Shown here: positions 9,997 through 63,969 of the stretch, piece after piece
Layout: each line of letters opens with the position of its first letter
Numbering within the stretch: the stretch's first letter is position 1
Source of the DNA: an uncultured Gammaproteobacteria bacterium
Lineage (GTDB): Bacteria > Patescibacteriota > Microgenomatia > CAYXHB01 > CAZYTL01
Reading direction: 5' to 3'
Assembly (NCBI GenBank): GCA_964650355.1
Contig: CAZYTL010000004.1
Coordinates: 67,912 to 131,911 of the forward strand
Length of the DNA stretch: 64,000 nt
The notes under the pieces: model-generated
The model's input: only the letters and a program-made list of their open reading frames with translations
Database searches by the model: none
What the model was told of the DNA's origin: nothing
Position numbers and translations under genes: made by a program

Positions 9997-10038
9997 AATA
10001 CTTGATACTTGATACCCAATGCTTAATCCATGATACTA
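9997..10038. repeat. Heptanucleotide tandem repeat (ATACTTG x2, then degenerate units)
   Basis: Read directly; lies in the divergent region between the protease gene and the next ORF. Confidence 0.8.
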
Positions 10039-11696: not shown

Positions 11697-11785
11697 ACGA
11701 CACCAAATTAACCTTCTTCAATTATTCAGTCTTCAATCTATATCCTATCTCTCTAATTTCTACTCTCTACTTCCTAATTCCTAAT

Positions 11786-12863: not shown

Positions 12864-12958
12864 ATAATCCTAGCTTACCGTAAAATTAGCTATTTGCAAC
12901 TACTACCTCCTTCCTCCTCCTATCAATGAGCTAACAGCTATAAGCTAAAAGTTGATTC

Positions 12959-46583: not shown

Positions 46584-46618
46584 ATACCTAATACCTGATA
46601 CCTCATACCAAATACCAA
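46584..46618. repeat. Heptanucleotide tandem repeat (ATACCTN x3, ATACCAA x2), intergenic
   Basis: Read directly. Confidence 0.8.
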
Positions 46619-46643
46619 TAAAAAACCTCCCTGGTCAGGAGGC
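46615..46643 (-). terminator. Rho-independent terminator-like hairpin (CCTCC-N7-GGAGG followed by a T-run on the minus strand)
   Basis: Read directly; lies downstream of the minus-strand NUDIX gene. Confidence 0.5.
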
Positions 46644-47276: not shown

Positions 47277-47397
47277 CCAACATCTACTACGCGGGCTCCG
47301 ATATCCCTCGGGACCCGCCCACTATTCGCTCCAAATTCTGAGTGAATCCAAAGTCGAATCAACAATCTTCTATTTATCAGTAAATGATCTTTACTGT

Positions 47398-47432
47398 TTA
47401 CTGATTACTGATAACCGATTACCGACGGCCTA
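47398..47432. repeat. Heptanucleotide tandem repeat (TTTACTG x2, ATTACTG, ATAACCG, ATTACCG), intergenic
   Basis: Read directly. Confidence 0.75.
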
Positions 47433-49726: not shown

Positions 49727-51421
49727 TTACGTCTCCGTCCTCCTGAAAATCAAAATCTCCTTCGAGGTGTAGACCTTCTCAAAATGAGCATATAACCGCC
49801 CCCGCTTATCCTCAGGCGCATACAACTGATCCCACACCTCATCATCCTTCTGAATAATAATCCACCGTGCATACTTTTCCGGCTCTTCCAAAGATTCCTC
49901 CCAATAAGGCCTAGTACCAACGTAAATCACATTTTGCATCGGAATTCCGCTTCTTATAATACTTAACAATCTTGAATAATCGTCAATCAACACCAGCCCG
50001 TTATCATAATGCTGCGCCAGCCAAACTTCGGCATCCAATCGGTACGCAGTTGATAAGCCTCTTACCCCGTCTTCCATTGCCAAATTTCTGCTATACCCGA
50101 TTAAAAACAAACCGGATTGTAACACCAGGCTCGCAATTATTACCAGTTTGCCTACTGATTTACTTTTGGCAAACAGCATCCCCACGAATACCGCTACCGT
50201 CGGCACCATCATCAATCCGTATCTCACGTTAAACAAAGTCCACTCAAAACTCGTCGGCGTCAAATGAGGAATAAAAATAATCGATTGGCCCATATACAAA
50301 GTCACCACATAAAACACAAACGGCACCATCAACAACCCCACAATCAACCCTCTCCTGTATAAACCACTACTGATTAATTGGCGGACATTAGCCTTCACTT
50401 CAGACCACCATCTTCCCATCTTCAGCACTGGCTTTAAATATCCCGTCAGACCAATCACGAACATCACCAGAGTTACCGGCCCCACAGCATTCATGGTAGT
50501 CACCAGATAATAAAGAAACGATAACCCCATATTTTGATAAGCCGGCAGTTGTCCTTTAGCCAACCACCCCTGTTGCTGCGACTTGGCTGAAAATTGACTG
50601 TTAGTAAAATACAGCGGATCACCCAATATCAGCCACGCCCATAACAGCCACAACCCTATTCCTAAAAAGGCCATCGTGGAATATAAAATCACCTTACCTT
50701 CCATTTCTCGCCAGTATTTCCTTCCCCTCACTAAATAAAAAACAGTTAATATCGCTGCTTCCGCCAACACCAACAGCCAACCATCATACCTGGATAACGT
50801 GGCACAAAATCCGAAAAAAGCCGCAAACAGCAAATTCATCAACCGTGAGTACTCTCCATCCGATTTAGCCCCACTGCCAAAATCGCCTCTTTGACCGTCC
50901 GTCAATAAATACTTAATGAAAAAATAACTAGAAAGCGTAAAAAATCCAATCAATGGCAACTCAGTCATCGGCGTGCTTTGCATGTACAAGATCCCTGGAT
51001 TCAAACTAAAAACCAGCCAAGCCAACACCCCTGCCCATCTCTGCTGAGTTAACAACTTGGTCAGCTTATAAATAAACACAGAGCTAATCACATAAAAAGC
51101 TCCTGAAATAATTGCCCCTGCCAAACCAGTCCGCCACATCCAGTCACTCCATATCAACGGCAACATCAATACATGAGGCAGTGGTAACCAAATACCACCC
51201 AATTGCGCCATCCCGGGCGTTAAACTATCCACTACCCGCTTACTAATATTCAAATGACTCTCTGCATCACCGTACACCACAATCACGTCATTGTGTAACG
51301 CCAGCCCGATTCTCATCATGCTTAACACCGTAGACACCAGTAACACGATTTTCTCCCACGACCATCCCGCGGCCTTTTGTCGGATTTGATCTATCTGGTG
51401 TCTATCAAAAGCAATTGTCAT
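49727..51421 (-). CDS. Polytopic membrane protein, GT-C-fold glycosyltransferase-like (ArnT/PMT family-like)
   Basis: 564 aa, more than 10 TM helices, large loop regions. Family assignment by architecture only. Confidence 0.5.
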   Translation of the reverse strand: MTIAFDRHQIDQIRQKAAGWSWEKIVLLVSTVLSMMRIGLALHNDVIVVYGDAESHLNISKRVVDSLTPGMAQLGGIWLPLPHVLMLPLIWSDWMWRTGLAGAIISGAFYVISSVFIYKLTKLLTQQRWAGVLAWLVFSLNPGILYMQSTPMTELPLIGFFTLSSYFFIKYLLTDGQRGDFGSGAKSDGEYSRLMNLLFAAFFGFCATLSRYDGWLLVLAEAAILTVFYLVRGRKYWREMEGKVILYSTMAFLGIGLWLLWAWLILGDPLYFTNSQFSAKSQQQGWLAKGQLPAYQNMGLSFLYYLVTTMNAVGPVTLVMFVIGLTGYLKPVLKMGRWWSEVKANVRQLISSGLYRRGLIVGLLMVPFVFYVVTLYMGQSIIFIPHLTPTSFEWTLFNVRYGLMMVPTVAVFVGMLFAKSKSVGKLVIIASLVLQSGLFLIGYSRNLAMEDGVRGLSTAYRLDAEVWLAQHYDNGLVLIDDYSRLLSIIRSGIPMQNVIYVGTRPYWEESLEEPEKYARWIIIQKDDEVWDQLYAPEDKRGRLYAHFEKVYTSKEILIFRRTET

Positions 51422-51436
51422 AATCTTTCTTTAAGC

Positions 51437-52990
51437 TCACTTTCCCCTATTCTTGAGCGTCTTTGGCCGTTGCTCAAACATCGGCCCTATAAATAAAACC
51501 ACTCCCATCACTAACAAAACCAAGCTTAAAATTACCGCATAATATTCGCCCAAAGAATATCTGCCCCTTAACCATTGGTTAAACACGAAATTTCCGGTTA
51601 TCGACTGACTAAAAAATACCCGACTGGCTTCCAATCCGTATTTCACTTTCCAATAATCTGCTTCTACCTTGGGAGGCACTGCATTAGTGGTCAACACCCC
51701 CAATAAAGCCACCACACAAGAGTAAAATAACAGCAAAAAGGCTGCCAGCAAATAATAAATTTTTCTCCTGTATTCTGCTATCCATTTGGCTGAAAATAAT
51801 GCCAAAATCGCCATTGAAGGAATCAAATACCTTGGTCCGAATGCCCATCCTCCCCAGGGATCGCCAAAACTCGCGTACACAAATAAGTTAATTCCTGCCA
51901 GACCCATTAAAGTTCCGGCCGCTAAACCCATCCCTCCATTAATCACCAACCACATTCCCCAAATGGCCAAAATAAATATCGGGGCATAAACAAACAGGCC
52001 CTTGTCAGGCGCAAACAATAATACATATAAACCGTGTGGCAACCTTTCTTCCTTAAATAGACTGCTCACCCCTTCTTTATGAGCCATAATCTCCGATTGC
52101 TCTTCCTTGGTGGTTTCCAACACCGCTGCTGACTTTGCCGCCCCCTCATACCTCACTAACGTATTACTCAACGTTCTCCAGCTACCATAATTCACATAAT
52201 TATAATAAGCATGCACTCCGGAAAGCACCATAAACACCAAGGCTGTCACCACCACGCTGGCCCGGAAATTTAGTTTAATTTTTTCCTTCGTAGCATGAAC
52301 ATTTCCTGCCACTAACATTAAATAAACTATATTAGGGACCAATAAAATCACATTTGGATAATCAACAAAGATCGCCAAGGCATAACCTAACCATACCGAT
52401 GCCGCCCACATCCAACTGAACCTTCCCTGCTGGCTGTACTTATACACCGACCAAAACCCCGCCAACATCAAAAACACCGAGATCGCGTGCTGGTAAATGG
52501 TTACCGAGTAACTCCAAGCTGGACTCGCAAAAGCATAAATCAATGCTGCCAATAGAGCTGCCCAATTCGGCAACTTTAATATCTGTCTCGCGATTAAAAA
52601 CAACAACACCATACCTCCAATATTAAATATCGGAATCGTGGCATAAGCAGCCAACTGGCCCCAGCCATATTTACTCCCCAACAAATACAACGGCTCAATC
52701 AACAGCGGTACCCCAGGTGGAAAAAAACTATAAAACTTGCCGTCCAAATACCCCACATCTGGCGCTGCCACCTCCGCCCAACCGGGAGACAAAGCAAACG
52801 AATGATCATCCACCAACGACATCAACAGCGCATATGGAGATCGCTCATGAGAAGATTCAAAGGGCGAACCTGTCCTGGTCAACTTCTGCACGGCTCTCAT
52901 ATCAGGATTGCCAGGCACTCCCCGCAAAGTCAACGCATGGAAGAATATCCCGACTACGACGATAATTAAAATGTATAAAAGATTCTTCAT
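51437..52990 (-). CDS. Polytopic membrane protein, GT-C-fold glycosyltransferase-like (ArnT/PMT family-like)
   Basis: 517 aa, more than 10 TM helices; paralogous architecture to the preceding gene. Confidence 0.5.
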   Translation of the reverse strand: MKNLLYILIIVVVGIFFHALTLRGVPGNPDMRAVQKLTRTGSPFESSHERSPYALLMSLVDDHSFALSPGWAEVAAPDVGYLDGKFYSFFPPGVPLLIEPLYLLGSKYGWGQLAAYATIPIFNIGGMVLLFLIARQILKLPNWAALLAALIYAFASPAWSYSVTIYQHAISVFLMLAGFWSVYKYSQQGRFSWMWAASVWLGYALAIFVDYPNVILLVPNIVYLMLVAGNVHATKEKIKLNFRASVVVTALVFMVLSGVHAYYNYVNYGSWRTLSNTLVRYEGAAKSAAVLETTKEEQSEIMAHKEGVSSLFKEERLPHGLYVLLFAPDKGLFVYAPIFILAIWGMWLVINGGMGLAAGTLMGLAGINLFVYASFGDPWGGWAFGPRYLIPSMAILALFSAKWIAEYRRKIYYLLAAFLLLFYSCVVALLGVLTTNAVPPKVEADYWKVKYGLEASRVFFSQSITGNFVFNQWLRGRYSLGEYYAVILSLVLLVMGVVLFIGPMFEQRPKTLKNRGK

Positions 52991-53007: not shown

Positions 53008-55200
53008 CTAAGAGCTTTGAGTTAACATCTCTGGACCTTCCACCGTCATTGGTGTCCAGTCGCCTACTATTAACTTTTGATGTTTGATCTTAGATATTAG
53101 ATCTCTGTACCACTCATCCATCCTTCCCGCCACTTCCCTCCAGGAATTCTGTAGCCCTTCCTCCCGATTCCTCTCTTCGATTTGCTTTACCTTCCTGCTC
53201 TGCTTATTTGCCAACACATAATTGATCTTCTCGGCCAAGGTTTTATCATCTCGGGTTTGAACACAAAACCCATTTACTTCGTGTTTGATTAACAACGGCA
53301 GGGCCGTATTATTGGCTACAATGCACACCAGCCCCTGACTCATCCCCTCATGCACCACATTACAAAAACTCTCCCACAACGCCATATGCACCATCATCTG
53401 ACTGTGTTTAAGAGCGTAATATTTATCAATCCCTCGGATCACTCCCGGAAATACCACCCGATTTTCTACCCCCAATTCCTTAGCCAGTTTCTTTAAATAA
53501 TCAAAGTATCCGGCGTGCTGGTTCTTTTCCACCGGACCGATCGCCACATACTTAACCTCTTTTGGCACATCAACTAAGGCCTTAATCACCGTCTCCAAGT
53601 TCTTAATCGGATAAATCCTTCCTATCTGAATCAGATACTTTCCCCAATCTTTAACCTGACTTTTAATCTCCTTGCTGGCCAGTTTATCAGCCTCCATGTA
53701 AGCTTCGTCATCCAAACCATTGGCAATCACCTCAATCAAATCCTCTCTGACCCCGTGCTTCAACATCTCCTGCTTTTCCCATTCCGATACTGCTCGTACT
53801 CCGTCAACTACTGCATTTATCATCCAGGTGCCCAAGGAATAATGATAAACCTGTTTTCCCCATCTCTGCCACCAGGGAAATACCGCCCATTCAGGATTAA
53901 ATCCTCCATGCGGAGTCAATATTACCGCATACCCCTTCCTTCCTAATAACTTATCCACCCCTGCCTTTAACAAGATATGCAAATGTGGGAATACATTAAA
54001 ATTATGCAACGCCACCACCGCAGTCCTCTGCCAATCAATTTGAGGGAAAAACCCATATCCGGGATGATATCCGTACCGTTTTACATTCATCCCCGAAATC
54101 GTCTCCTCATCCCCTAACGCCTGCTTTTCAGTCAACGTATCTTTTGATGTATGTATCTGAACATCCCACCCCTTCTCAGCCTGCCTCGCCTGACGGCTGT
54201 CAAAGCGGGCTAACACTTTATAAGTCTGCAAAATGTTTACCTCAATCCCAGCCGTCACCGGATAAAAGTACTTGGTGACGAGGTCGACGCGCATACCAGA
54301 ATGTTCATCGCTCACATCTTTCACAGGTTTTCGCAAACTAGACCAAACAGGCAGAACTAACAAAGAGATGCGTTTCCAAATCTTCTTAAATGACCTTAAT
54401 AACTTCTTAATTAATCCTCTTACTTGCACCACCGACGGACTCACCATTGCCCTTACTTCAGCCAAACTATGCGTTCCGTTAACCCCGATTCTGGATACCC
54501 GTAACCTGTCTGTCAGCGGTTTAATCAACTCATCATCCATACTCAACCCCAGATCAAAACCGGCGTTCTTCACCATCTCCCAAACTTTTCCATCGTACGC
54601 CCCCTTGGGATAAGCAAAATACCTAATCTTTATACCTAAATCCTGCTCTAACTTCTTTTTCGCTTCGACTATTTCTTTCTCTATCTGGGTTGCATCCAGC
54701 TTCTCAAAATCCGCATGCGTCATACTGTGGCACCCCACTTCCCAACCCACCTTTACCAACTGCTTAATTTCCCGTTTGCTCAGTAGTTGATTATTATTGG
54801 CTAATTCTTCCCGGTTAGCTTTTGAAGGATCAGCCAACAAGTTAATACAAGGTTTGATCCCTTTCTTCTTCAACCAGTCCTTCACCTCTAACACACTGGC
54901 ATAGCCGTCATCAAAAGTGACCGCGGCCACCGGCTTGTTAAATGTCCTCTTCCCTTTAATAAACTCCTCAATCTCCTTCAACCTCACAAATTCACAATCT
55001 CGGCTTAACAGTTTCATTTGCTGCTTAAAAGCCTTCTCGTTCACATTCAGCCACCAGTCATTCCCGATCCCGTGATAGACCAACACCACCACCTGATTCT
55101 TCCTTCCCAGCATTTGATCCGCTGACCACAGGATCACATAAACCAGCCTCCTCAACCAGGAAAATAATTTGAATGGTAATCGTGAAATAAAATTCTTCAT
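53008..55200 (-). CDS. Fusion protein: polysaccharide deacetylase (NodB homology) domain plus GT4 (group 1) glycosyltransferase domain
   Basis: N-terminal VVLVYHGIG...FDDGY...HSMTHADF (NodB motifs); C-terminal GT-B region with EGMSQGLVCIVANN (an E-x7-E-like motif). Confidence 0.7.
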   Translation of the reverse strand: MKNFISRLPFKLFSWLRRLVYVILWSADQMLGRKNQVVVLVYHGIGNDWWLNVNEKAFKQQMKLLSRDCEFVRLKEIEEFIKGKRTFNKPVAAVTFDDGYASVLEVKDWLKKKGIKPCINLLADPSKANREELANNNQLLSKREIKQLVKVGWEVGCHSMTHADFEKLDATQIEKEIVEAKKKLEQDLGIKIRYFAYPKGAYDGKVWEMVKNAGFDLGLSMDDELIKPLTDRLRVSRIGVNGTHSLAEVRAMVSPSVVQVRGLIKKLLRSFKKIWKRISLLVLPVWSSLRKPVKDVSDEHSGMRVDLVTKYFYPVTAGIEVNILQTYKVLARFDSRQARQAEKGWDVQIHTSKDTLTEKQALGDEETISGMNVKRYGYHPGYGFFPQIDWQRTAVVALHNFNVFPHLHILLKAGVDKLLGRKGYAVILTPHGGFNPEWAVFPWWQRWGKQVYHYSLGTWMINAVVDGVRAVSEWEKQEMLKHGVREDLIEVIANGLDDEAYMEADKLASKEIKSQVKDWGKYLIQIGRIYPIKNLETVIKALVDVPKEVKYVAIGPVEKNQHAGYFDYLKKLAKELGVENRVVFPGVIRGIDKYYALKHSQMMVHMALWESFCNVVHEGMSQGLVCIVANNTALPLLIKHEVNGFCVQTRDDKTLAEKINYVLANKQSRKVKQIEERNREEGLQNSWREVAGRMDEWYRDLISKIKHQKLIVGDWTPMTVEGPEMLTQSS
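53076..53103. repeat. Heptanucleotide tandem repeat (TTTGATG, TTTGATC, TTAGATA, TTAGATC) in the 3' coding region of the deacetylase-GT4 fusion
   Basis: Read directly; encodes DLISKIKHQK. Confidence 0.7.
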
Positions 55201-55210
55201 ATTCTACAAA

Positions 55211-56128
55211 CTAAGTTTTTATTAACCTTGTAGTGCTCATCGACCTTTCCCAGGGACCGTTAATCGGTTTAGCCCACAACGATCGTACCGAGGTCAGCAA
55301 GTTCAAACCCAAATAAACCACCATATAAAAAGGAGTTCTCAACATAAATATCAAACCTCTTAACATACTCATCGGCCAAATTATCGGCAACCAATATTCT
55401 TTAATCACCCTCCCTGCTCCGAACTCGCTTTTGTATAAGTATTTAGACCGATGGTAACGGTTACTCTGTTTTTGATGATCACTCATCGTCTCCGGCAGCT
55501 TGATCTTTAATACTGCCCTTGGCGCGTATTCGTATTTAAATCCCTTAGACACGGTAAATAAGTACGAGTAGGCATCCTCCCCCTCCTTATCCGGAAACCG
55601 CAACCCAGAATACAACCTTCTGGAAAGCGCTCTTGCTGCCCCGTGGACCGTATAAACATTCCTCCCCTGTCTAAATTGTTCAAACACAAAATTCTTCAAA
55701 ATCAAACTCTCCACCAGCACTTTCTCCAAAAAGGTTCTTGGTTCCACCCCTACCATCCGTCCAGATGTTAAGTCAACTCTTCTGTTAACAATCGACTCCA
55801 CCAGCTTGCTGATAAACCTATCATCCTCTATCAAAATATCCGCATTCAGCAATACCAAAATATCCGTCTCCGTCAAACTGATCATCTGATTCTGTCTGAA
55901 AGACAAACCCTTATTTACTCGATCATCGATCACCTCAATCTTTTTACTTCTCACTTTCCTGGCCACCTCCACAGTCCGGTCCTCGCTCCCGTCGGAAACC
56001 ACCAGAATTTTTTCCACCACGAATCCCTCGGCTCTTTGCTTTAATAAACTCTCGAGCAAGTATCCGATATTGGCCTCTTCGTTAAAGGCCGAAATCCCGA
56101 TGGTGACAGTTGGTTTATTTTTAGACAT
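55211..56128 (-). CDS. Family 2 glycosyltransferase
   Basis: TIGISAFNEEANIGYLLESL; a D-rich VVSDGSED motif typical of GT2. Confidence 0.8.
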   Translation of the reverse strand: MSKNKPTVTIGISAFNEEANIGYLLESLLKQRAEGFVVEKILVVSDGSEDRTVEVARKVRSKKIEVIDDRVNKGLSFRQNQMISLTETDILVLLNADILIEDDRFISKLVESIVNRRVDLTSGRMVGVEPRTFLEKVLVESLILKNFVFEQFRQGRNVYTVHGAARALSRRLYSGLRFPDKEGEDAYSYLFTVSKGFKYEYAPRAVLKIKLPETMSDHQKQSNRYHRSKYLYKSEFGAGRVIKEYWLPIIWPMSMLRGLIFMLRTPFYMVVYLGLNLLTSVRSLWAKPINGPWERSMSTTRLIKT

Positions 56129-56162: not shown

Positions 56163-57941
56163 TTATTTAAACTTTTCGCTTCTTAATACATAAAAATGGA
56201 AAAACGTAAACTCCGGCATTCGATAATCATTCACAATCTCAAAACCTGCCTTCTTAATCGACTCCCGCCATCTTTTTTCAGGAAAACCGGCCGCTTCCAA
56301 CTCCCAGTAATGATTACCCGGCCGTAGATGCTTTCTGGGGCTCGGAAAAGTAAATCCCCACTTCCAGGTAGGCAAAAACCACAATTTCACCCTTACCAAA
56401 AAATTTATTCCTTTATGTGGTACCGAAATCACTGCGTATTTGGCTCTTCTGGCCATCTCTGCCAGAGCTTTCTCCGAATCACCATATTCAATATGCTCCA
56501 AAGTCTGACAGCACAAAATACAATCGAACTTCTTCGGCTTATCCACCGGAATCTCCGGTAATGCCCCCACATAGTCCGGATTCAACTCCGGGTCAATATC
56601 CATGGTCACCACTTTCATCCCTTGACTCTGTAGCACACTCGCCACGCTCTTGTCCGCTGGCCCAATCTCCAACACCGAAATCGCCTTCTTTCCTAGTCTT
56701 TGAGCCACCTCTTGGACCAACTGTATCTGGTGGTAATAGGCAGTCCACCTCTCCTCATGTACATACCGGTCAAACCCAAAATAATCCTTATTCTCCTGCT
56801 TCTGATATTTGGCTTTGCTCTCTTCGTCGTCTTCACTTGACACGACTGATAAACTTTTCAAATCCGTCGTGTCATCCCGCACAGACTTGAAACCAGGTGA
56901 GGTTTCAACCTGTTGCGGGATCTTCCCCTCACCTTCAGACCCTCCTGCTGATCTCGCCGCTACTTCCTCTGAGTTAAGCCCTCCTACCTCCTCCTTATTA
57001 GAAATCTTAATCTTCTCTTTATCATCATCTGCCAACACCTTTGACGATTCGGCCATCTCCCACTTCGCCGTCATCTTACTTTCGTTTTTACGAGCCTTCC
57101 AGGCGCAATACTGATTCACCGCAAAAATATAACTACAGGCAATCGGGTCTTTAATAAATTGAACAACTAAGTTCTTCACAAACAAACCTCGGGGAATAGC
57201 TCTCTCCTTCTCCACCAATTCTTTAGGAAAATATTTGCTCATCCTCACCGGTGAAGCCTTAAACCTGCTCATCTGTCTGATGTGATCCCTTAAAGTCTGG
57301 GGAGACCTGAACCAGACTATCGCGCTGGGTACGTGCTTAAATTTATAACCCTTTTCCAAACAAACAAAATAGGTATAAGTATCATTACAAATCATGTCCT
57401 CGGGTACATGAATCTTCTTTGTCAACTCCCTCCGATAAGCCAAAATCCTCCCATCAGCCGCCATCACATTGTTTCCTCCTTTAACTTTGGCTCTGAAATC
57501 TAAATATGCCTCTACAGTTCTATTCACTGCCCGTTCAGTAAAAGTAGTAGCCGCCAATGGCCTGGGATTACCTCCGCACATCCCCACTTTCGGATCCTTT
57601 ATCAGAGGTTGAATCATATCCCTGACCACATACTCATGACTGAAAATTACGTCCGCATCAGTCTGTACCAAAAAATCCGTATCTAACTTCTGATAAATTT
57701 GATTTAACCGACTTGACTTACCCAAGCGCTTCCGGTCATCAAACACTTTCACCTTACGTGATTTAAAAGCCTTCACCACCTTCACTGTCTCATCGTCAGA
57801 TCCGTCATTAAACACCCAAATTTGCTTCAACTTAAACCCTTCCTCTTTCTGGTCCAACACAGACTCCAGCCACTTACCAATGTTCTTTTCTTCATTGTAA
57901 GCGCTCACTGCAATGGTCACGGTTGGTAGTCGTTTCTTCAT
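56163..57941 (-). CDS. Fusion protein: GT2 glycosyltransferase plus class I SAM-dependent methyltransferase
   Basis: N-terminal TIAVSAYNEEKNIGKWLESV, VFNDGSDD (GT2); C-terminal VLEIGPADKS...VVTMDIDPE...ILCCQTLEHI (methyltransferase motifs I and post-I). Confidence 0.7.
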   Translation of the reverse strand: MKKRLPTVTIAVSAYNEEKNIGKWLESVLDQKEEGFKLKQIWVFNDGSDDETVKVVKAFKSRKVKVFDDRKRLGKSSRLNQIYQKLDTDFLVQTDADVIFSHEYVVRDMIQPLIKDPKVGMCGGNPRPLAATTFTERAVNRTVEAYLDFRAKVKGGNNVMAADGRILAYRRELTKKIHVPEDMICNDTYTYFVCLEKGYKFKHVPSAIVWFRSPQTLRDHIRQMSRFKASPVRMSKYFPKELVEKERAIPRGLFVKNLVVQFIKDPIACSYIFAVNQYCAWKARKNESKMTAKWEMAESSKVLADDDKEKIKISNKEEVGGLNSEEVAARSAGGSEGEGKIPQQVETSPGFKSVRDDTTDLKSLSVVSSEDDEESKAKYQKQENKDYFGFDRYVHEERWTAYYHQIQLVQEVAQRLGKKAISVLEIGPADKSVASVLQSQGMKVVTMDIDPELNPDYVGALPEIPVDKPKKFDCILCCQTLEHIEYGDSEKALAEMARRAKYAVISVPHKGINFLVRVKLWFLPTWKWGFTFPSPRKHLRPGNHYWELEAAGFPEKRWRESIKKAGFEIVNDYRMPEFTFFHFYVLRSEKFK

Positions 57942-57945
57942 AAAT

Positions 57946-58866
57946 TTATTTATGGGATAACACTTTTGAACTCACAGACGAATTCCACAACGGATTATAG
58001 AACTCGGTGGTCCATTGACTCTCCACTCTGCACTTAATCAATATCAGTCCGTAAGCAATAGTTCTTATCGGATCGACCAATAACGCCTTCGCTCCCGATT
58101 CAACCATCAGCTTCGTAGGCACCCTATATTCCTGCTCCACATCCAGGTCAGGAAACAATTCCGCCATCTTCTTCTGACTCAGCATCGCCCTCACACTCTG
58201 CCTGCTATGGCCCGCCAAGTTATCCGGCGAACGATACCATACCACCGCCTTAGGCTGATAAACAAATTTCCACCCCTTTGATTTGCAACTCAAATAACTG
58301 AAAGCATCTTCCCCCACCACCGGCAAAAATCTTAACTGCCGGTAAAAATCCTTCTTAAAAGCCCTGGCCCTCCCATGACACAAATGGATCGTGTCTCCTT
58401 TTCTAATCTTTTCCGCCATTTCAATCTTCACTACATGACTAAAATTAATCACTGACTCAAACCAGTTTCTGGCAGGCATAGGCACCACTTTCGCTCCCAC
58501 CAAACCGACCTGATCGTTCCGTCTCATCGGCTCAACTAATCTGGTTAAAAACCCACCGCCTGCAGGCAACACATCTGCATTCATCAACACCAACACATCC
58601 GACATACAGGCTTTAATTATCCGATTCTGACTTTTAGCCTGGCCGCTCCTTTGCCTATTCCGCAATAATTCCACTCTTTTGTCCTTAATTCCTTTGACTA
58701 TCTCATCCGTCCTGTCCCGACTCGCATCCGATACTACCACGATCTTATCCAGCTTAAATCCTTCCTTCTTTTGCTTCAATAACTCCTTCAGCAACCGGCC
58801 AATATTCCCCTCCTCATTGTAAGCCGGAATTCCGATGGTAATAGTCAAATTCTTATTTATTTTCAT
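57946..58866 (-). CDS. Family 2 glycosyltransferase
   Basis: TITIGIPAYNEEGNIGRLLKEL, VVSDASRD. Confidence 0.8.
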   Translation of the reverse strand: MKINKNLTITIGIPAYNEEGNIGRLLKELLKQKKEGFKLDKIVVVSDASRDRTDEIVKGIKDKRVELLRNRQRSGQAKSQNRIIKACMSDVLVLMNADVLPAGGGFLTRLVEPMRRNDQVGLVGAKVVPMPARNWFESVINFSHVVKIEMAEKIRKGDTIHLCHGRARAFKKDFYRQLRFLPVVGEDAFSYLSCKSKGWKFVYQPKAVVWYRSPDNLAGHSRQSVRAMLSQKKMAELFPDLDVEQEYRVPTKLMVESGAKALLVDPIRTIAYGLILIKCRVESQWTTEFYNPLWNSSVSSKVLSHK

Positions 58867-58932: not shown

Positions 58933-61900
58933 TTATTCTCTTTGATAAATAACATTTGGCACTAATCGAGGACGCTTAATCTCCTCCGGAACCGCTCTCA
59001 CTTCTGCAGCATCTTCAATTAACTGCAAAAACTTCTCCGCTGCCTTGTCCCAAGTAAACTGTTGCACAAATACATAGGCATTGCTACCCATCCTGCTCCT
59101 TAAACTCTCATGAGTAATTGCCACTTCCATTGTCTTAGCCCAGGCGTCTACGTCCTTTAAGGCCACCAGCCAGCCCGTTTTCCCGTCCACCACCGAATCG
59201 CACAATCCGTGCACTTTAGCTGCAATCGTCGGAGTTCCGCACGCATTCGCCTCCAACACCACCAGGCTCCAACCTTCTATTGACGACGGCTGCAGCAGCA
59301 CCCAGCTGCTCGATAACAACTTAACTTTTACCTTCTCGCTCACCTTACCCCAGAACTTCACCGACTTTTCGACTCTCAAATTTTTGACCAACTTCATCAA
59401 ATCCCGGGTCTTTTCCCCTTCCCCCGCGATTTCCAACCTGGCATCCGGGAACTTCTTTACCACCTGGCTGAAAGCCTTAATTCCCACATCCACGTTCTTA
59501 TACGCCTGATGTCTGCCCACATACACAAAAGACGGATACTTAGTCTTGGCACCTCGATAATAATCTTTCAAATTCACCCCGCAATACGCAAACTCGATCT
59601 GCTCCGGCTTAAACCGACCCAAACTTACAATATCCTTCTTAGACGATTCTGAAATCGTCACCACCTGCTCGTTTCTATACAACCACGGCATCACCACTCC
59701 TTCCATCAACTTAGCTATCACCGCAAACGATTTTAAGTACCATCTTAATTGCAAATGCTTCAAATACACTCCCTGATGCACATGATAAACCACTAAAAAC
59801 TTAGGTTTCCTCACATACAAAGGCGTAAAAAATGGAATCCCGTTCTCACAATCCACCACCACGTCAAACTTCCCCCTGAACCTGGTCACGTAACACCAAA
59901 ACGCCCAGAAATAAACCGTATAAAAGCCTCCCTTACGTACTATCCGCACCCCGTCGATTACTTCTTCTTCTTTATTCTTCTTGTCATTGCCACAAAACAA
60001 CGTCACCTCATGCCCTTCTTTTACCCAACGCTTGGCCATTTCGTGAGCATAAACTTCTGCTCCTCCTGCCCACACGTGCTTAATATCCCGCCAGTTATAA
60101 ATCAGAATCCGTAATCCTTTCCCTTCTTCCTCCTCCAGCTCCTTATGCCCGTTACCGCTCCCGTTTCCCCAAACAATCCTCACCCTCCCGAACACCTTCT
60201 CCATCACCTTTTCTATCTGCTTGGCAAACACATGCATCACCAGCATTCCTTCCATGAACACCACTCCTGACAACAACATCATCATCGCCATCATCTCCAC
60301 TGATTGATGCCAAACCGCCAACCCTGCCACCTGCATGATCGATAACCCCAATCCCACCACCGGAAACACATTCTTCTTCTTCAACTGGTAATAAGACATG
60401 AAATTGTTGGCAATCGCAAACAACACACTCGCCCCCGCATAGATCGGCAATAATCCCAAAATCACTCTTGATTTCTCCCCCAACAACAACGGCACGGTCA
60501 ACCTCCCCAACCATCCCACCGCCACAAACCCGGCTAAATTAACTACTGTGGCCAACCCTAACAATTTGTAAAATACTGACTTAGAATCCCTGCCTGCTCC
60601 TTCTTCCCTACTCACCAACGGAGGAATAAATTGGGCAAACAGTGATCCGCCGAAAAACACCATCTTTCCTACCAAAGACAACAACGCATATTCACCTGCT
60701 TCCACCGGTGACAAAAAGTACTTTGCCGCCACCACGTCCAAATTCATGAATCCCAAAGTGGCCAGTTTCGTCATCAAGGAAGTACCTACAAACTTATAAG
60801 ACAACTGCCGAATTTGCTTCTTACTCGCTTCTACCATATCCACCGGCAACCTGATGGCCACACTCCAACCGATAAACAATCCCATCCCCATCGACACCGG
60901 AATCGCCGCATATACCCAGGCATTCAATCCCAGTTTCACCAACACCACCGAAATCACCAACTTGGCCAAAGCCTCTGTCAGAATCACCACCCCCATGGCT
61001 GCAAACTTCATACTTCCCCGCAAAAATCCGCTATCAATCGCATACAATGTTCCGATTATCCACACCGGAGTAAACAAATAAAACGGCAACATGTCGCTGC
61101 TCTGGAACACTCTGGCCCAAATCGGCACCGTCATCAACCACATTCCCGTGATCGCAATCGCCACCTTCATTGCCTGCCACCTGGTGTATCGCCAAAACCT
61201 CTTCGCCACTTCCCCATGTTCACCTAACCAATACCCGCTTTTGTACATCACCGTTCTGGAAACTGCCTGCAGCGGGATCTGGGCCAAATACACCAAACTT
61301 CCCATTAAACTTACCAACCCGAACTGCTCCACACTTACCGCTCTTCCCAGATAAGCATTATATAAAAAGTTCAAAAAATTACTCGCTACCGACGCCCCCA
61401 CCAACACTCCACCCATAGAAGTTGCCGACTTTAACTGGTCAATCAACCAACCAGTCTGCTCTTTATCTACTCTCCGCGTCTTCCGCGCTCCCGCTTTACC
61501 ATCCGTCTGTCCGGACTGACTCTCAGCTTGATCAGTTTTCCCGTTTAGCCAACTCAAAGGCCAAAAATCACCTAATGAAATCAACCCTCTCCTCTTGCCA
61601 TTTGCTAATCCTGGTAAACTTCCCATCTCTGCATTAATTGGAACCTCCATCCGTCCCCCCCTAACCGCCGAAGCAGTCGCATACACCGGCGCCGGCTGCG
61701 GCAAAACCTCCGGTCCCCACGCCGGCTCTTCCACCACTTCTTCTTCCGCCTGTTCTAGGTGGAAACCGTGTTTGGTTTTCGCCCAATAATAAGGATTCAC
61801 TATCACCTCATAACCCGCCCGCCAGGCAGCCACGCTCATCCCCAGCCAATAAAAGGGCACTAAAAACACATACTTAATCAACTCCCACTGTCCCCGCTTG

Positions 61901-63969
61901 GCACATCCCACCATGTAAGCGTACAAATAACAAAAATTACCAAATACCATTGAAAACACCCCCAAATATAAAATCGGAGTCAAATATAAAGATTCGATCA
62001 CTTCCCCTACTATTGGCCTGAAAGCAAAATAACTTGCCGTCAACAACCATAAAAACGGATTCACCATCATCGACAACACCTTTCCTCCCACCGTCAACTG
62101 AAAGTACAAATTCTTCACCCACGTCCAACCATCATCATCTGATTTGACAACATCTGAATTCTGAATTCTAACTCCTAACTCCTGTATTCCTGATCCCTGA
62201 TTACTGCTTACTGATTGCTTGTTTCTTCTCATATGAACAAGGTACGTCTGTACATACCCCTTCACCCATCTGGTTCTTTGCCTATACCAGTTAAATATCC
62301 TGCTATTAGCTTCTTCCCAGGTCGTGGAATCCACAATCGCCGTCTGATAACCATGCTTCACCAGCCGCATTCCCAAATCGCAATCCTCTGTCACATTAAA
62401 CGCATCCCATTTATGCAATCTCAGCAAATCCTCAGTCCTAAAATGATTCGAAGTCCCGCCCAAAGGAATCGGCGCCTGAATCGACTGTAAACCTGGCAGG
62501 ATCAAATCAAACCACAGCGAATATTCAGCCGTAAACAACCTAGTGAGTAAATTTTGTTCCTGATTATAATAATTTAACTTAGCTTGAATACAAATCGTCT
62601 GCGGCCCTGCTTTTCTAAAAGCTAATACGGCTTTTTTCAACTGTAACGCATCTGGCCAGTCTTCCGCATCATAAACCACTACATACTCACCCTTGGCCAT
62701 CGATAAACCATAATTACACGCCTTTGGCTTCGTCTTAGGCAATCCGTGCGGCACCACCACCACCTGAAAATAATCAGGCAAATCAAACTCTCCCACCTTA
62801 TTAATTGTCTGTCTGTCATCCTCTTCCAATAACAGCAACACTTGCAACCTATCTTTGGGATAATCCAACTGCTGAATTCCCTGCACGAACTGGGGCACCA
62901 CCTGCCACTCCTTATATAACGGACACAAAATCGTATAACTCGGCCACTTATCCCCAAAGTCATTCATCTCCTCCTCTGTTACCTTAAACTCCACATCTTT
63001 CGCCAGACTCCTGTACACCAGCCATAAACTGAACACCAAATCAGCCAAATAATATAAAGTCAACCCGCTAATCACCCCAATCAGCGTCCCCCTCCAGTTC
63101 ACTGCCAAACCCAAGACCAGCAGCGCTGTTAACAATCCGATCACCAACTTTTGCCGACCGGTCGCCTGTTCGAACGCGCTTTCCGTCTTAGGTAAATCAG
63201 TTCGCGGCTCATACCTTTGCCCCTTATGCACCCACTTTTCTTCCTCTTCTGATTTTTGCTCTGTCATCGTCCCTTTCCTCCTTCTCATTTTTAACTTCAG
63301 AGCCGACCACCCAATCTCCAGACTCGTTTTCAAGATATTTACTTTTGCTTGACCTACAGTTCTCTCTGCAAAATCAATCTCCACTCCTCCAATTCTATAA
63401 CCCGCCTCCCTGGCATTCAGTAAAAATTCCAAATCAAACGTCCATCCTGTGGGATCCAATTCCATCCCCTCCAGCACCTGTTTGCGCCATACCTTCAATC
63501 CGGACTGCACGTCACAGTTCAAACCATGTAATCCCTTACCAAACACCCATCTAAACGCCTTACTTACCACCCTCCGTTTCCACCCGGTCCCCTGATAATT
63601 CCGATTCGCCACCACCACATCCGCCTCACCACTGGCAATTCTTTCCACCATTTCTGCGAGCGCTTCCGGCGGATACTGCAAATCCGCATCCATCATCCCC
63701 ACCACATCATACTTAGCCTGGGCAAATCCCTCTAACAACGAAAAAGCCTTACCTTGCGGACCTTGTTTTTCTACTAATCTGACCGGATAATCCTTACTCA
63801 GCGTCAAAGTCTCCTCTCGTGTTCCGTCAGTTGATCGGTCATTCACCACCAATACCTCATAGCCAATCCCAGCTGACCGCAAATTCGCGTCAATTCTTTT
63901 CACCAACGGGGTTAGATTTCCTTCCTCGTTAAACGCTGGAACAACAATTGAGATATATACCTGGGACAT
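58933..63969 (-). CDS. 1678-aa multidomain glycan-assembly fusion: GT2 (DPM/GtrB-like), then a processive GT2 synthase (cellulose/chitin/PNAG-synthase-like, with TM), then a Wzx/MOP-family flippase-like polytopic domain, then a C-terminal GT4 glycosyltransferase
   Basis: Approximate residue ranges follow. Residues 1-230: VVPAFNEEGNL, VVNDRSTDGT, MDADLQ (GT2). Residues 330-600: DAEDWPD (DxD), TEDCDLG (the TED motif), QRTRW (QxxRW of processive GT2), followed by TM helices. Residues 790-1290: 12-14 TM helices resembling polysaccharide biosynthesis/Wzx proteins. Residues 1300-1678: GT-B with EGWSLVVLEANACGTPTIA...VVDGKTGWLV, the GT4 E-x7-E region. Confidence 0.8.
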   Translation of the reverse strand: MSQVYISIVVPAFNEEGNLTPLVKRIDANLRSAGIGYEVLVVNDRSTDGTREETLTLSKDYPVRLVEKQGPQGKAFSLLEGFAQAKYDVVGMMDADLQYPPEALAEMVERIASGEADVVVANRNYQGTGWKRRVVSKAFRWVFGKGLHGLNCDVQSGLKVWRKQVLEGMELDPTGWTFDLEFLLNAREAGYRIGGVEIDFAERTVGQAKVNILKTSLEIGWSALKLKMRRRKGTMTEQKSEEEEKWVHKGQRYEPRTDLPKTESAFEQATGRQKLVIGLLTALLVLGLAVNWRGTLIGVISGLTLYYLADLVFSLWLVYRSLAKDVEFKVTEEEMNDFGDKWPSYTILCPLYKEWQVVPQFVQGIQQLDYPKDRLQVLLLLEEDDRQTINKVGEFDLPDYFQVVVVPHGLPKTKPKACNYGLSMAKGEYVVVYDAEDWPDALQLKKAVLAFRKAGPQTICIQAKLNYYNQEQNLLTRLFTAEYSLWFDLILPGLQSIQAPIPLGGTSNHFRTEDLLRLHKWDAFNVTEDCDLGMRLVKHGYQTAIVDSTTWEEANSRIFNWYRQRTRWVKGYVQTYLVHMRRNKQSVSSNQGSGIQELGVRIQNSDVVKSDDDGWTWVKNLYFQLTVGGKVLSMMVNPFLWLLTASYFAFRPIVGEVIESLYLTPILYLGVFSMVFGNFCYLYAYMVGCAKRGQWELIKYVFLVPFYWLGMSVAAWRAGYEVIVNPYYWAKTKHGFHLEQAEEEVVEEPAWGPEVLPQPAPVYATASAVRGGRMEVPINAEMGSLPGLANGKRRGLISLGDFWPLSWLNGKTDQAESQSGQTDGKAGARKTRRVDKEQTGWLIDQLKSATSMGGVLVGASVASNFLNFLYNAYLGRAVSVEQFGLVSLMGSLVYLAQIPLQAVSRTVMYKSGYWLGEHGEVAKRFWRYTRWQAMKVAIAITGMWLMTVPIWARVFQSSDMLPFYLFTPVWIIGTLYAIDSGFLRGSMKFAAMGVVILTEALAKLVISVVLVKLGLNAWVYAAIPVSMGMGLFIGWSVAIRLPVDMVEASKKQIRQLSYKFVGTSLMTKLATLGFMNLDVVAAKYFLSPVEAGEYALLSLVGKMVFFGGSLFAQFIPPLVSREEGAGRDSKSVFYKLLGLATVVNLAGFVAVGWLGRLTVPLLLGEKSRVILGLLPIYAGASVLFAIANNFMSYYQLKKKNVFPVVGLGLSIMQVAGLAVWHQSVEMMAMMMLLSGVVFMEGMLVMHVFAKQIEKVMEKVFGRVRIVWGNGSGNGHKELEEEEGKGLRILIYNWRDIKHVWAGGAEVYAHEMAKRWVKEGHEVTLFCGNDKKNKEEEVIDGVRIVRKGGFYTVYFWAFWCYVTRFRGKFDVVVDCENGIPFFTPLYVRKPKFLVVYHVHQGVYLKHLQLRWYLKSFAVIAKLMEGVVMPWLYRNEQVVTISESSKKDIVSLGRFKPEQIEFAYCGVNLKDYYRGAKTKYPSFVYVGRHQAYKNVDVGIKAFSQVVKKFPDARLEIAGEGEKTRDLMKLVKNLRVEKSVKFWGKVSEKVKVKLLSSSWVLLQPSSIEGWSLVVLEANACGTPTIAAKVHGLCDSVVDGKTGWLVALKDVDAWAKTMEVAITHESLRSRMGSNAYVFVQQFTWDKAAEKFLQLIEDAAEVRAVPEEIKRPRLVPNVIYQRE
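62153..62222. repeat. Heptanucleotide tandem repeat array (about 10 units: CTGAATT x2, CTAACTC x2, CTGTATT, CCTGATC, CCTGATT, ACTGCTT, ACTGATT...) inside the fusion glycosyltransferase
   Basis: Read directly; encodes the low-complexity linker KQSVSSNQGSGIQELGVRIQNSD. Confidence 0.8.

Follow-up and report, generated by a model that had tools for sequence, protein, structure and literature searches.

A single polypeptide combining predicted polyprenyl-phosphate sugar synthase, synthase-type GT2, Wzx-like transporter and GT4 modules in the Microgenomates

Three-component extracytoplasmic glycosylation systems start with a GT2 enzyme of the DPMS/GtrB type, which joins a sugar to polyprenyl phosphate; a flippase then carries the product across the membrane, where a GT-C enzyme uses it. 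These systems include GtrB/GtrA/GtrC, ArnC/ArnEF/ArnT, CsbB/GtcA/YfhO, and the streptococcal GacI/GacK/GacL, in which GacK is a Wzx-family flippase. At the locus described here, the modules that we call D1 and D3 would fill the synthase and flippase roles, and two GT-C-type proteins, GTC1 and GTC2, would fill the third. The locus differs from the three-component systems in having the synthase and flippase in one chain, together with a BcsA-like GT2 (D2) and a GT4 (D4), in having two GT-C enzymes, and in having no component at a curated family cut-off; all components missed the NCBIfam equivalog cut-offs by wide margins.

Other parts of the locus recall other systems. D2 resembles the synthases BcsA, hyaluronan synthase (HAS), PgaC and NfrB in its GT-A domain, which carries the D, DxD, TED and QxxRW motifs, and probably in its flanking membrane helices, but it has fewer helices than these enzymes and neither a PilZ domain nor a partner of the BcsB or PgaD type. 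It is constantly accompanied by a GT-C protein, and we know of no characterized synthase with such a partner. In the Pel system, PelF is a GT4 and PelG a MOP-like exporter, and the pathway contains a CE4 deacetylase. The combination of a GT4 with a MOP-family membrane protein is reminiscent of our D3-D4 unit, although D3 orthologues match Polysacc_synt and not the PelG family. The covalent joining of a lipid-modifying enzyme to the translocator of its own product has a parallel in the MprF/PplT fusions, and among PplT-domain proteins, flippase domains fused to glycosyltransferases have been documented (bioRxiv 10.1101/2022.03.11.483950). The present fusion differs from these in its predicted flippase fold, which is MOP rather than PplT, and in its probable substrates, which would be polyprenyl-linked sugars rather than phospholipids.

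A search of the literature on Microgenomates, Patescibacteria and CPR envelope glycosyltransferases, flippases and Wzx-glycosyltransferase fusions found no published description or experimental study of the four-module architecture. Bacteria of the candidate phyla radiation (CPR) have tiny genomes, and there is nearly no experimental envelope biology for them. The gene and its parts lie as follows in the window, by which we mean the whole 64,000-nucleotide stretch of DNA that was analyzed.

58933..63969, minus strand: four-module ORF (D1-D2-D3-D4), gene 1 of the operon (ORF list; full-length homologues)
63265..63969, minus strand: D1, aa 1-235, DPMS/GtrB/ArnC-type GT2 with DxD residues D94/D96 (Pfam, PDB, Foldseek, NCBIfam)
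63001..63159, minus strand: hydrophobic helical segment, aa 271-323, lying after D1 and before the D2 catalytic domain, with two peaks in hydropathy (hydropathy; AF2 helix 271-323)
62230..62943, minus strand: D2 catalytic GT-A domain, aa 343-580, with DAED 434-437, TED 527-529 and QRTRW 564-568 (Pfam, invariant residues, Foldseek, NCBIfam)
62119..62214, minus strand: query-specific low-complexity insertion, aa 586-617, with a 7-nt periodic tract (TRF, sequence, occupancy, pLDDT)
61735..62133, minus strand: D2 C-terminal membrane helices, aa 613-745, with many invariant aromatics, ending in a conserved W-x-K-T-x-H-G motif (alignment, hydropathy, AF2)
61423..61734, minus strand: disordered D2-D3 linker, approximately aa 746-849, with query-specific insertions at 764-775 and 789-832 (alignment, AF2)
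60184..61422, minus strand: D3, aa 850-1262, predicted 12-helix MOP-superfamily module (Wzx-like, PST family) (AF2, Foldseek, orthologue Pfam)
58990..60117, minus strand: D4, aa 1285-1660, GT4 (GT-B) with E-x7-E motif E1565, E1573 (Pfam, PDB, NCBIfam, invariant residues)

The ORF list of the window gives one uninterrupted frame from ATG to stop; the gene is real and intact and encodes a single 1678-residue membrane protein. The product is polytopic, with roughly 16-19 predicted membrane helices. Pfam identified Glycos_transf_2 at aa 7-139, Glyco_tranf_2_3 / Glyco_trans_2_3 at aa 343-661, and Glyco_transf_4 with Glycos_transf_1 at aa 1302-1632. An earlier note on this DNA had described four normally separate activities encoded in one ORF, and this description was borne out, with the assignments of D1, D2, D3 and D4 each surviving testing. 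The domain searches and structure prediction proposed in that note gave Pfam matches for D1, D2 and D4, and for D3 through its orthologues only, while AF2 modeling (run with 48 sequences) and Foldseek matched the folds of D1, D2 and D3 to PDB entries. Taken singly, the modules all fall into known classes of enzyme or transporter; it is their joining that is unusual.

The Microgenomates/Patescibacteria yielded at least 120 clusters of full-length four-module homologues, with lengths of 1514-1607 aa and identities of 39-56%. They come from independent NCBI, JGI, ENA and Logan assemblies, including some contigs of more than 500 kb, and also from many GTDB species genomes. Near-invariance and occupancy were measured over an alignment of 120 homologues, in which 230 near-invariant residues are spread across all modules. 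As judged from these sequences, the layout is conserved over many Microgenomates genomes. The architecture, which the earlier note called uncommon, is so across bacteria generally and is typical inside the Microgenomates. The same note's suggestion of a recent fusion does not agree with this degree of divergence among clusters from independent assemblies, nor with near-invariant positions in every module. A related concern was that four neighboring genes had been joined artificially, either through a chimera in the assembly or through the loss of stop codons. The sigma-70 gene in the window looks frameshifted, so assembly indel errors may exist, and split versions of the modules do occur in other genomes, but the continuous architecture recurs across these varied assemblies and GTDB genomes and the linkers can be aligned across homologues, which leaves an artifact hardly credible.

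D1 is predicted to make polyprenyl-phosphate sugars, as synthases of the DPMS/GtrB/ArnC type do. A PDB sequence search matched it to the DPMS structure 5mlz with E=2.7e-28 and also to GtrB and ArnC, and Foldseek aligned it with 5mlz over 234 columns at 30% identity and an rmsd of 2.5 Å. The "lipid-linked GT2" named in the earlier note fits this module. D94 and D96 are invariant among the 120 homologues, and hydropathy and AF2 place membrane-anchor helices after the catalytic domain (amphipathic helix 212-228, hydrophobic helices 271-323). Stand-alone D1 genes in split loci encode proteins of 273-337 aa, the size of GtrB. The top NCBIfam matches were AglJ, ArnC, PgfS and PpgS, and none of these named equivalogs was reached; AglJ, the best of them, scored 76 bits (cut-off 325). 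By sequence, D1 belongs to the broad polyprenyl-phosphate glycosyltransferase class and to no named orthologue group.

The sequence and model of D2 identify it as a probable BcsA/hyaluronan-synthase-like membrane GT2 with all catalytic motifs invariant. The DAED, TED and QRTRW motifs were present without exception in the 120 homologues, and the fold matches were to BcsA (5.7e-16) and HAS (1.7e-15), with 479-535 aligned columns and modest TM-scores. The earlier assignment of a synthase with DxD, TED and QxxRW motifs held. The AF2 model has about 2 + 3-4 helices around the GT domain. The best NCBIfam matches were CelA, with 61 bits (cut-off 699), and PgaC, with 47 bits (cut-off 422, E 1.8e-12), neither of which was reached. 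Identity to E. coli NfrB is only 22% over 293 aa. Some D2 homologues match PF13506, and one is automatically labeled "beta-monoglucosyldiacylglycerol synthase". Glucosylceramide synthase, MGlcDAG synthase and other lipid glycosyltransferases that are not processive share the motif set of D2. Some homologues carry the automatic KO label "XagB".

The segment from about aa 850 to 1285 is hydrophobic, with about 12 helices. D3 was assigned by fold search because a profile search of the PDB gave chance-level matches only; the query D3 itself had no Pfam match, even at E<=10. Its AF2 model (pLDDT 88.6, pTM 0.87) gave 49 PDB matches by Foldseek at E<=1e-3, all of them MOP proteins, the first being WzxE (9g95_A), followed by MurJ and MATE. 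The TM-score with WzxE was 0.71-0.77, and the identity to solved members was 12-15%. Among 26 orthologue segments, 29-39% identical to the query, nine matched PF01943 (best 1.7e-8) and four matched PF13440 (best 4.2e-15). Together, the orthologue Pfam matches and the AF2 model indicate a predicted 12-helix MOP/Wzx-like transporter with the fold of WzxE and MurJ, in support of the translocase domain proposed earlier. Proteins of the D3-type MOP family often carry a C-terminal glycosyltransferase fusion (D3-D4, D3-GT2-like, or longer). This distinguishes the D3 subfamily from classical Wzx proteins, of which such a fusion is, to our knowledge, not a feature, as does the lack of a Pfam match in the query.

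D4 is clearly a GT4 glycosyltransferase by sequence, as the earlier note had it, scoring above the Pfam gathering thresholds for both Glyco_transf_4 (64.7 bits) and Glycos_transf_1 (130.2 bits). E1565 and E1573 are invariant among the 120 homologues, and PimA and PimB were among the solved relatives in a PDB search. We also considered a Pel-like system for D3-D4 and rejected it; D4 scored 41 bits against the PelF cut-off of 100, and PelG matched 0/26 of the D3 segments.

The four-module gene leads an eight-gene operon that runs from 63969 down to 48345. For the context upstream, beyond the edge of the window, homologues were used. The remaining seven genes are as follows.

57946..58866, minus strand: GT2 gene, 306 aa, variable part (Pfam)
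56163..57941, minus strand: GT2-methyltransferase fusion, 592 aa, variable part (Pfam)
55211..56128, minus strand: GT2 gene, 305 aa, variable part (Pfam)
53008..55200, minus strand: NodB-type deacetylase-GT4 fusion, 730 aa, no signal peptide, variable part (Pfam; NCBIfam Agl16-like; sequence)
51437..52990, minus strand: GTC1, GT-C-type membrane glycosyltransferase, 517 aa, presence tracks D4 (PMT_2; LA_3751/LA_3752 family; co-occurrence)
49727..51421, minus strand: GTC2, GT-C-type membrane protein, 564 aa, near-universal D2 partner (BLASTP; orthologue PMT_2; co-occurrence)
48345..49601, minus strand: secreted protein, 418 aa, last operon gene (Pfam, orthologue searches; conserved position)

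The gene order in the window agrees with that of loci from Amesbacteria and Gottesmanbacteria. The genes between the head and the tail differ from genome to genome and include GT2s, GT4s, deacetylase, methyltransferase and dTDP-sugar genes, while the conserved tail consists of the two GT-C transferases and the secreted putative glycoside hydrolase. A scan for promoter and terminator signals across the operon gave results no different from shuffled sequence. In Amesbacteria, the cluster is followed by a sortase and an fn3 protein.

The earlier note described a NodB deacetylase-GT4 fusion as adjacent to the four-module gene; the fusion exists, and three GT2 genes lie between the two. One of its options for the locus was a PNAG-like system; this would be a poly-beta-1,6-GlcNAc synthase whose exported polymer is deacetylated by NodB. 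That a NodB-family deacetylase occurs in the operon and that D2 is weakly similar to PgaC/IcaA agree with this idea, but D2 falls far short of the PgaC cut-off and scores higher with CelA. The NodB domain lacks a signal peptide, and the GT4 to which it is joined is cytoplasmic. Nor is it conserved, with sister clusters having a PIG-L-GT2 fusion instead or nothing. The operon has no PgaD/IcaD-like partner and no extracytoplasmic PgaB/IcaB deacetylase, and the conserved partners of D2 are GT-C enzymes. A PNAG-like role was therefore not borne out and is very improbable.

GTC1 matches PMT_2 with 27.7 bits (cut-off 26.1). The query copy of GTC2 has no PMT_2 match, but 8/22 of its orthologues do (best 4.6e-8). 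Asp52 in the first loop of GTC2 is invariant, and BLASTP found 35% identity over 518 aa with the L059 fusion. Profile searches of the PDB gave only chance-level matches for GTC2, and for the secreted protein either its C-terminal Ig-like domain or chance-level matches. The secreted protein consists of a signal peptide, a domain of about 300 aa, and a C-terminal CarboxypepD_reg Ig-like domain; four of its 22 orthologues show weak glycoside-hydrolase similarity in the 300-aa domain (best E=8e-4). A secreted glycoside hydrolase is typical of synthase-dependent exopolysaccharide systems.

Among 80 genome loci, the modules occur in a Rosetta-stone pattern, and the split versions sought in related genomes were found, either as neighboring genes or fused in a different order. 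We observed D1-D2-D3-D4 as a single gene, D1-D2 beside D3-D4, D1 beside D2-D3-D4, D2-D3-D4 without D1, D1-D2-D4 without D3, D2 beside D3, and D2 beside D3-D4. The coupling is not obligatory, since some clusters lack D3 (D1-D2-D4) and others lack D1. In counts that ignore kinship, GTC2 accompanied D2 in 48/54 loci, and D4 and GTC1 were both present in 30 of the 54, both absent in 20, and discordant in 4. D2-GTC2 fusions occur in the Ktedonobacterales and Chloroflexia, a D1-like domain is fused to GTC2 at locus L082, both kinds of fusion lying in other phyla, and minimal operons consist of two genes, D1-D2 and GTC2. The Chloroflexota and Actinomycetota also have the D2 and GTC2 pairing, and fusion of D2 to MshEN domains, which bind c-di-GMP, is common in them. 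Such fusions are a feature of D2 relatives outside the CPR and recall the exopolysaccharide synthase NfrB, which is under c-di-GMP/MshEN control. No characterized member was found among the relatives of the actinobacterial MshEN-D2 protein, whose names are generic or automatic. From this distribution, D2 with GTC2 appears to be an older core than the four-module fusion.

The best reading of the locus, which we hold with about even confidence from sequence and models, is an assembly line for a lipid-linked glycan to which a synthase-type GT2 is coupled; a lipid-linked glycan assembly line was also among the options of the earlier note. D1 would load a sugar onto polyprenyl phosphate at the cytoplasmic face, D4 and the variable soluble enzymes would extend and modify the lipid-linked glycan, and D3 would flip the lipid-linked sugar or oligosaccharide. 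Outside the membrane, the flipped donors would serve GTC1 and GTC2 in decorating or extending a glycan, most likely a polymer made by D2 and threaded through the membrane, and the secreted hydrolase would trim the product.

The same modules could be arranged as a lipoglycan route of the lipomannan/LAM or LTA-anchor type, in which D2 (and D4) primes diacylglycerol or another lipid inside, D3 flips it, and the two GT-C enzymes polymerize outside with the polyprenyl-phosphate sugar from D1. The resemblance of D1 to the Ppm1/DPMS type would fit such a route, as would PimA and PimB as relatives of D4, the pair of GT-C enzymes in the operon, the few membrane helices of D2, and the D2 homologues that match the ceramide glucosyltransferase family PF13506 or bear the MGlcDAG synthase name. 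The best fold and profile matches of D2 are nevertheless the polymer synthases BcsA, HAS, CelA and PgaC, the MshEN fusions in its relatives are typical of exopolysaccharide control, and the putative hydrolase is conserved in the operon. We know of no lipid-anchor chemistry for these organisms, and we consider a lipoglycan product unlikely.

In haloarchaea, AglJ starts a lipid-linked oligosaccharide on polyprenyl monophosphate. By analogy, D1 could start an oligosaccharide that D4 and the variable glycosyltransferases extend and D3 flips, with an oligosaccharyl- or O-mannosyl-type GT-C enzyme transferring it to surface proteins, for instance pili or the S-layer. The best NCBIfam matches, AglJ for D1 and Agl16 for NodB-GT4, point in this direction, as do the matches of the GT-C proteins to the protein O-mannosyltransferase family PMT_2, the resemblance of the variable glycosyltransferase set to that for a strain-specific glycan, and the sortase and fn3 protein of Amesbacteria. 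Protein glycosylation would, however, leave D2 without a role, despite its being the most conserved module and the universal partner of GTC2, and every family score is far under its cut-off; we regard it as distinctly improbable.

For the preferred assembly line coupled to a synthase, the ancestral core would have been D2 and GTC2, with or without D1. D3, D4, GTC1 and the variable glycosyltransferases would form a lipid-linked-oligosaccharide branch added later, and in the Microgenomates the four cytoplasm-facing or membrane modules would have become one polypeptide. A bolder version, which we offer tentatively and as somewhat doubtful, is that D2, GTC2 and D1 represent an undescribed type of envelope-glycan machine in the Patescibacteria, Chloroflexota, Dormibacterota and Actinomycetota, controlled by c-di-GMP in the latter groups, and merged in the Microgenomates with a Wzx/GT4 lipid-linked-oligosaccharide branch as one polypeptide. 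If this is true, the system is a hybrid of synthase-dependent and Wzx-dependent pathways, and the covalent link of D1 to a MOP protein would suggest that MOP proteins flip polyprenyl-monophosphate sugars. The fusion and the constant GT-C pairing are genomic evidence for steps that act as one machine, and the large gene at the head of this glycan operon, being widespread in the Microgenomates, is a strong candidate for the synthesis of a major surface polymer. The natural fusion may be a handy structural target for the coupling of lipid-linked sugar synthesis to flipping. The distribution also points to an uncharacterized, c-di-GMP-linked GT2 and GT-C system in the Chloroflexota and Actinomycetota; Paraconexibacter and Conexibacter are examples of members that can be cultivated.

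A low-complexity linker of heptanucleotide repeats between the modules had been reported in the earlier note. The repeats are real but weak; TRF reports three adjoining arrays at 62153-62216, scoring 32-34. The tract corresponds to aa 585-606, after the QxxRW helix and before the C-terminal membrane helices, and is not an inter-module linker because it is located within the synthase module D2. The insertion containing it (25 aa) is private to the query, with an occupancy of less than 0.2 in the 120 homologues and an AF2 pLDDT below 50. TRF found no repeats in the true D2/D3 linker (nt ~61423-61734). Over the whole window there are 13 period-7 arrays, compared with 2.2 +/- 1.5 in shuffles.

The reading frame at 58933..63969 on the minus strand runs uninterrupted from ATG to stop and encodes a single protein of 1678 aa. 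An earlier note had read four activities from it, and domain and fold searches back each module. We refer to these as D1 (aa 1-235), D2 (aa ~260-745), D3 (aa ~850-1262) and D4 (aa ~1285-1660). The Pfam matches, and the features of D2 seen by hydropathy and in the AF2 model, were:

aa 7-139, GT2 domain (D1; Pfam)
aa 271-323, hydrophobic helical segment (D2; hydropathy, AF2)
aa 343-661, second GT2 of the Glyco_tranf_2_3 / Glyco_trans_2_3 type (D2; Pfam)
aa 558-579, QxxRW helix, following the GT-A domain (D2; hydropathy, AF2)
aa 613-724, three to four further helices (D2; hydropathy, AF2)
aa 1302-1632, GT4, comprising Glyco_transf_4 and Glycos_transf_1 (D4; Pfam)

The synthase motifs named in the note were found as DAED (434-437), TED (527-529) and QRTRW (564-568). 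The region at aa ~850-1285 is strongly hydrophobic and had no Pfam match even at E<=10.

A search of 5.8 billion proteins recovered at least 120 full-length relatives (1514-1607 aa, 39-56% identity) from independent NCBI, JGI, ENA and Logan assemblies. All of the named ones belong to Microgenomates/Patescibacteria (Gottesman-, Levy-, Curtiss-, Ames- and Beckwithbacteria). The MAFFT alignment of the full set has 230 residues conserved at 97% or more, distributed across all four modules. Independent recovery together with conservation throughout the chain rules out an assembly artefact, and the divergence of so many four-module relatives is at odds with the recent fusion that had been proposed. 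Three low-complexity insertions private to the query (aa 593-617, 764-775 and 789-832) account for its extra length of about 100 aa over these relatives.

The solved structures closest to D1 in sequence are the Pyrococcus dolichyl-phosphate mannose synthase (5mlz, E=2.7e-28), GtrB and ArnC. AF2 modelling of aa 1-760 (pLDDT 87.4) gave a D1 fold that Foldseek aligned to 5mlz with 30% identity and an rmsd of 2.5 A. Its top NCBIfam matches (AglJ, ArnC, PgfS, Dol-P hexose transferase and PpgS) are all polyprenyl-phosphate glycosyltransferases, with every score far under the equivalog cut-off. These relatives, fold and scores place D1 as a predicted member of the polyprenyl-phosphate GT2 class, outside every named orthologue group.

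D2 matched the folds of BcsA (9b8v_E, 5.7e-16; also 4p00) and of the Chlorella virus and Xenopus hyaluronan synthases (Foldseek). The best profile families were CelA (61 bits, cut-off 699) and PgaC (47 bits, cut-off 422). With all profile matches under cut-off, D2 is a predicted membrane-embedded, synthase-type GT2 in no curated family. In the 120-relative alignment its C-terminal helices have many invariant aromatics and terminate in a conserved W-x-K-T-x-H-G motif, which we presume, as a lead only, to recall the gating-loop motifs of BcsA and HAS.

Heptanucleotide repeats had been taken for a linker between modules. The three adjoining weak period-7 arrays at 62153-62216 (TRF scores 32-34) instead encode aa 585-606, inside D2 and past the QxxRW helix. 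The tract coincides with a private 25-aa insertion in the alignment and with a segment of pLDDT <50 in the model. It is therefore a local expansion in the lineage of the query and is uninformative on the age of the fusion.

For the "Wzx-like flippase" reading of D3, 26 orthologous segments, 29-39% identical to the query, were each scanned singly against Pfam. PF01943 (Polysacc_synt) was matched in nine (best 1.7e-8), PF13440 in four (best 4.2e-15) and MatE in one. An AF2 model built with 47 homologues (pLDDT 88.6, pTM 0.87) has 12 long helices, and its 49 PDB matches at E<=1e-3 were MOP-superfamily proteins exclusively (Foldseek). The lipid III flippase WzxE was first (9g95_A, 6.3e-7; 9g9m TM-scores 0.73/0.77), ahead of MurJ and MATE transporters. 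The orthologue matches and the predicted fold support assignment of D3 as a PST/Wzx-like flippase at the fold and family level.

A D3 profile gave 1059 matches at E<=1e-30 among 1.84 billion representative proteins. The best 150 of these comprised 60 stand-alone proteins, about 38 D3-D4, about 20 in which a GT2-like domain comes after D3, about 10 D2-D3-D4 and about nine four-module proteins. By this breakdown of sequence matches, fusion to a glycosyltransferase is habitual in the MOP subfamily of D3. In well over one third of the best 150 representatives (proteins P0121-P0270) the fusion partner is a C-terminal GT4 or GT2-like domain, which hints at coupling of flippase and glycosyltransferase as a general trait of the clade.

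Pfam, PDB search, alignment and NCBIfam show D4 to be an ordinary GT4 carrying the E-x7-E motif. Downstream of the four-module gene, seven more genes follow on its strand, spaced 4-125 nt apart:

gene 2, minus strand, GT2
gene 3, minus strand, GT2-methyltransferase fusion
gene 4, minus strand, GT2
gene 5, 53008-55200, minus strand, NodB-GT4 fusion
gene 6, minus strand, GTC1, a PMT_2-type GT-C protein of 517 aa
gene 7, minus strand, GTC2, a membrane protein of 564 aa
gene 8, minus strand, secreted protein of 418 aa with a C-terminal CarboxypepD_reg domain

In four of 22 orthologues the secreted protein weakly resembles the catalytic core of a glycoside hydrolase (best 8e-4). This gene order matches Amesbacteria and Gottesmanbacteria loci, in which the four-module gene is also first. 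Variable genes follow there (GT2, GT4, a PIG-L-GT2 fusion, methyltransferase and dTDP-sugar genes), and then two membrane proteins of ~505-540 aa. In Amesbacteria the secreted protein, there of ~410 aa, comes next; the Gottesmanbacteria locus stops short of that position. Non-homologous deacetylase fusions occupy equivalent clusters, NodB-GT4 in the window (53008-55200) and PIG-L-GT2 in Amesbacteria (L001, 15683-17299), suggesting that some lineages de-N-acetylate a lipid-linked intermediate in the cytoplasm. Two more genes lie within a range of 2-17 kb from the operon: one for a small monotopic phosphoglycosyl transferase (Bac_transf, 234 aa, 41234-41938, plus strand) and one for a stand-alone PIG-L deacetylase (45723-46562, minus strand).

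The note had called for a search of related genomes for split versions. We scanned a single genome from each GTDB species and searched the ORFs of the resulting 80 loci with HMMs of the four modules. Besides the one-gene D1-D2-D3-D4 arrangement, we found the modules as adjacent genes in varied fusions: D1-D2 beside D3-D4, D1 beside D2-D3-D4, D2 beside D3, and D2 beside D3-D4. Incomplete fusions were D2-D3-D4 without D1, D1-D2-D4 without the flippase, D2-D4, and D1-D2 alone. To judge from these gene arrangements, the four modules have repeatedly been kept together in evolution and joined in differing orders. One 26-kb locus labelled Saccharimonadales (L012) has D1-D2 in three paralogous genes, one of which extends to D1-D2-(partial D3)-D4, along with a separate D3 and two GTC2 genes, which points to local amplification of the system. 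The four-module CPR-type gene is also present on many contigs titled 'uncultured Gammaproteobacteria/Bdellovibrionales/Pseudomonadales' (TPA assemblies; L005, L006, L011, L014-L016 and others). These titles are probably unreliable as taxonomy; the alternative is that the gene ranges beyond CPR.

Taken by itself, D2 has relatives at 43-56% identity in Chloroflexota, Ktedonobacteria, Dormibacterota, Actinomycetota and Bacillota; the chromosome of Paraconexibacter sp. AEG42_29 (Actinomycetota) has two copies. These non-CPR relatives (L059-L064, L068, L072, L078, L079, L082 and L083) are MshEN- or GT-C-fused. They carry one to six N-terminal MshEN domains, a type of c-di-GMP receptor that the E. 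coli exopolysaccharide synthase NfrB has as well; L059 has a C-terminal PMT_2-type domain instead. A GTC2 homologue is usually the next gene. The GTC2 of the window is 35% identical over 518 aa to the C-terminal half of the L059 protein (E=6e-82) and 29-30% identical to those of Chloroflexia D2 fusions, and eight of 22 GTC2 orthologues match PMT_2. In 48 of the 54 loci whose flanks are long enough, a GTC2 homologue adjoins or is fused to D2. Of these 54 loci, 30 have both D4 and GTC1 and 20 have neither (four discordant). Several Patescibacteria have a two-gene operon of D1-D2 and GTC2, and in L082 a D1-like GT2 fused to GTC2 directly follows D2. D1, D2 and GTC2 are thus each found fused to the other two. 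Outside CPR, the putative GT2 and GT-C pair is linked to c-di-GMP and is apparently uncharacterised.

From the module identities, their conservation and their demonstrated genomic coupling to two GT-C enzymes, a pathway can be drawn. D1 would make a polyprenyl-phosphate sugar, D4 and the variable soluble enzymes would extend a lipid-linked glycan, and D3 would flip it. The GT-C enzymes would use the flipped donors on the outer side of the membrane, most likely with a polymer made and exported by D2 as the acceptor, and the secreted putative hydrolase would trim the product. The ancestral core may have been D2 and GTC2, with or without D1, to which D3, D4, GTC1 and the variable glycosyltransferases would have been added as an oligosaccharide branch. 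The scheme resembles the three-component Gtr/Arn/CsbB-GtcA-YfhO/GacIKL systems, here joined to a synthase-type GT2. MprF and the PplT proteins are precedents for an enzyme fused to the flippase of its own product (bioRxiv 10.1101/2022.03.11.483950).

The same parts could also give another product. A lipoglycan whose glycolipid base came from D2 and D4 would fit the match of D2 homologues to the ceramide glucosyltransferase family and the automatic label of one of them as MGlcDAG synthase, and the AglJ-like and Agl16-like best matches would fit a protein-glycosylation pathway. The "PNAG-like" product suggested in the note is disfavoured because the PgaC score of D2 is far under cut-off and the NodB domain lacks a signal peptide, is fused to a GT4, and is replaced or absent in sister clusters.

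Literature searches found no published description of the four-module architecture or of the D2-GT-C pairing, and homologues in protein databases have only generic or automatic names. The architecture is widespread in public data, with every component of known kind. The protein is a good target for structural and biochemical study, and the operon is likely a major envelope-glycan locus of Microgenomates.

The window has 13 period-7 arrays, about six times the 2.2 +/- 1.5 of 40 shuffles (TRF), at these positions:

7229-7261, 9998-10015, 10594-10610, 11752-11795, 12929-12951, 44352-44384, 46503-46528, 46584-46620, 47391-47425 and 62153-62216

They are mostly intergenic or close to gene ends, with one within cysS and three within the four-module gene, and could be slippage-prone or contingency sequences. 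GC skew on the plus strand is extreme and uniform across 1-64000 (-0.23 to -0.50 in all 2-kb bins), independent of gene orientation; this asymmetry far exceeds the bacterial norm. ARAGORN found no tRNA or tmRNA genes in the whole 64 kb. A sigma-70 family gene (42387-43674, minus strand) looks divided between two ORFs that overlap in different frames:

43066..43674, minus strand, region 1.2 and the start of region 2
42387..43100, minus strand, the remainder of region 2 and regions 3 and 4

The split may be genuine, or it may come from a frameshift or an assembly indel.
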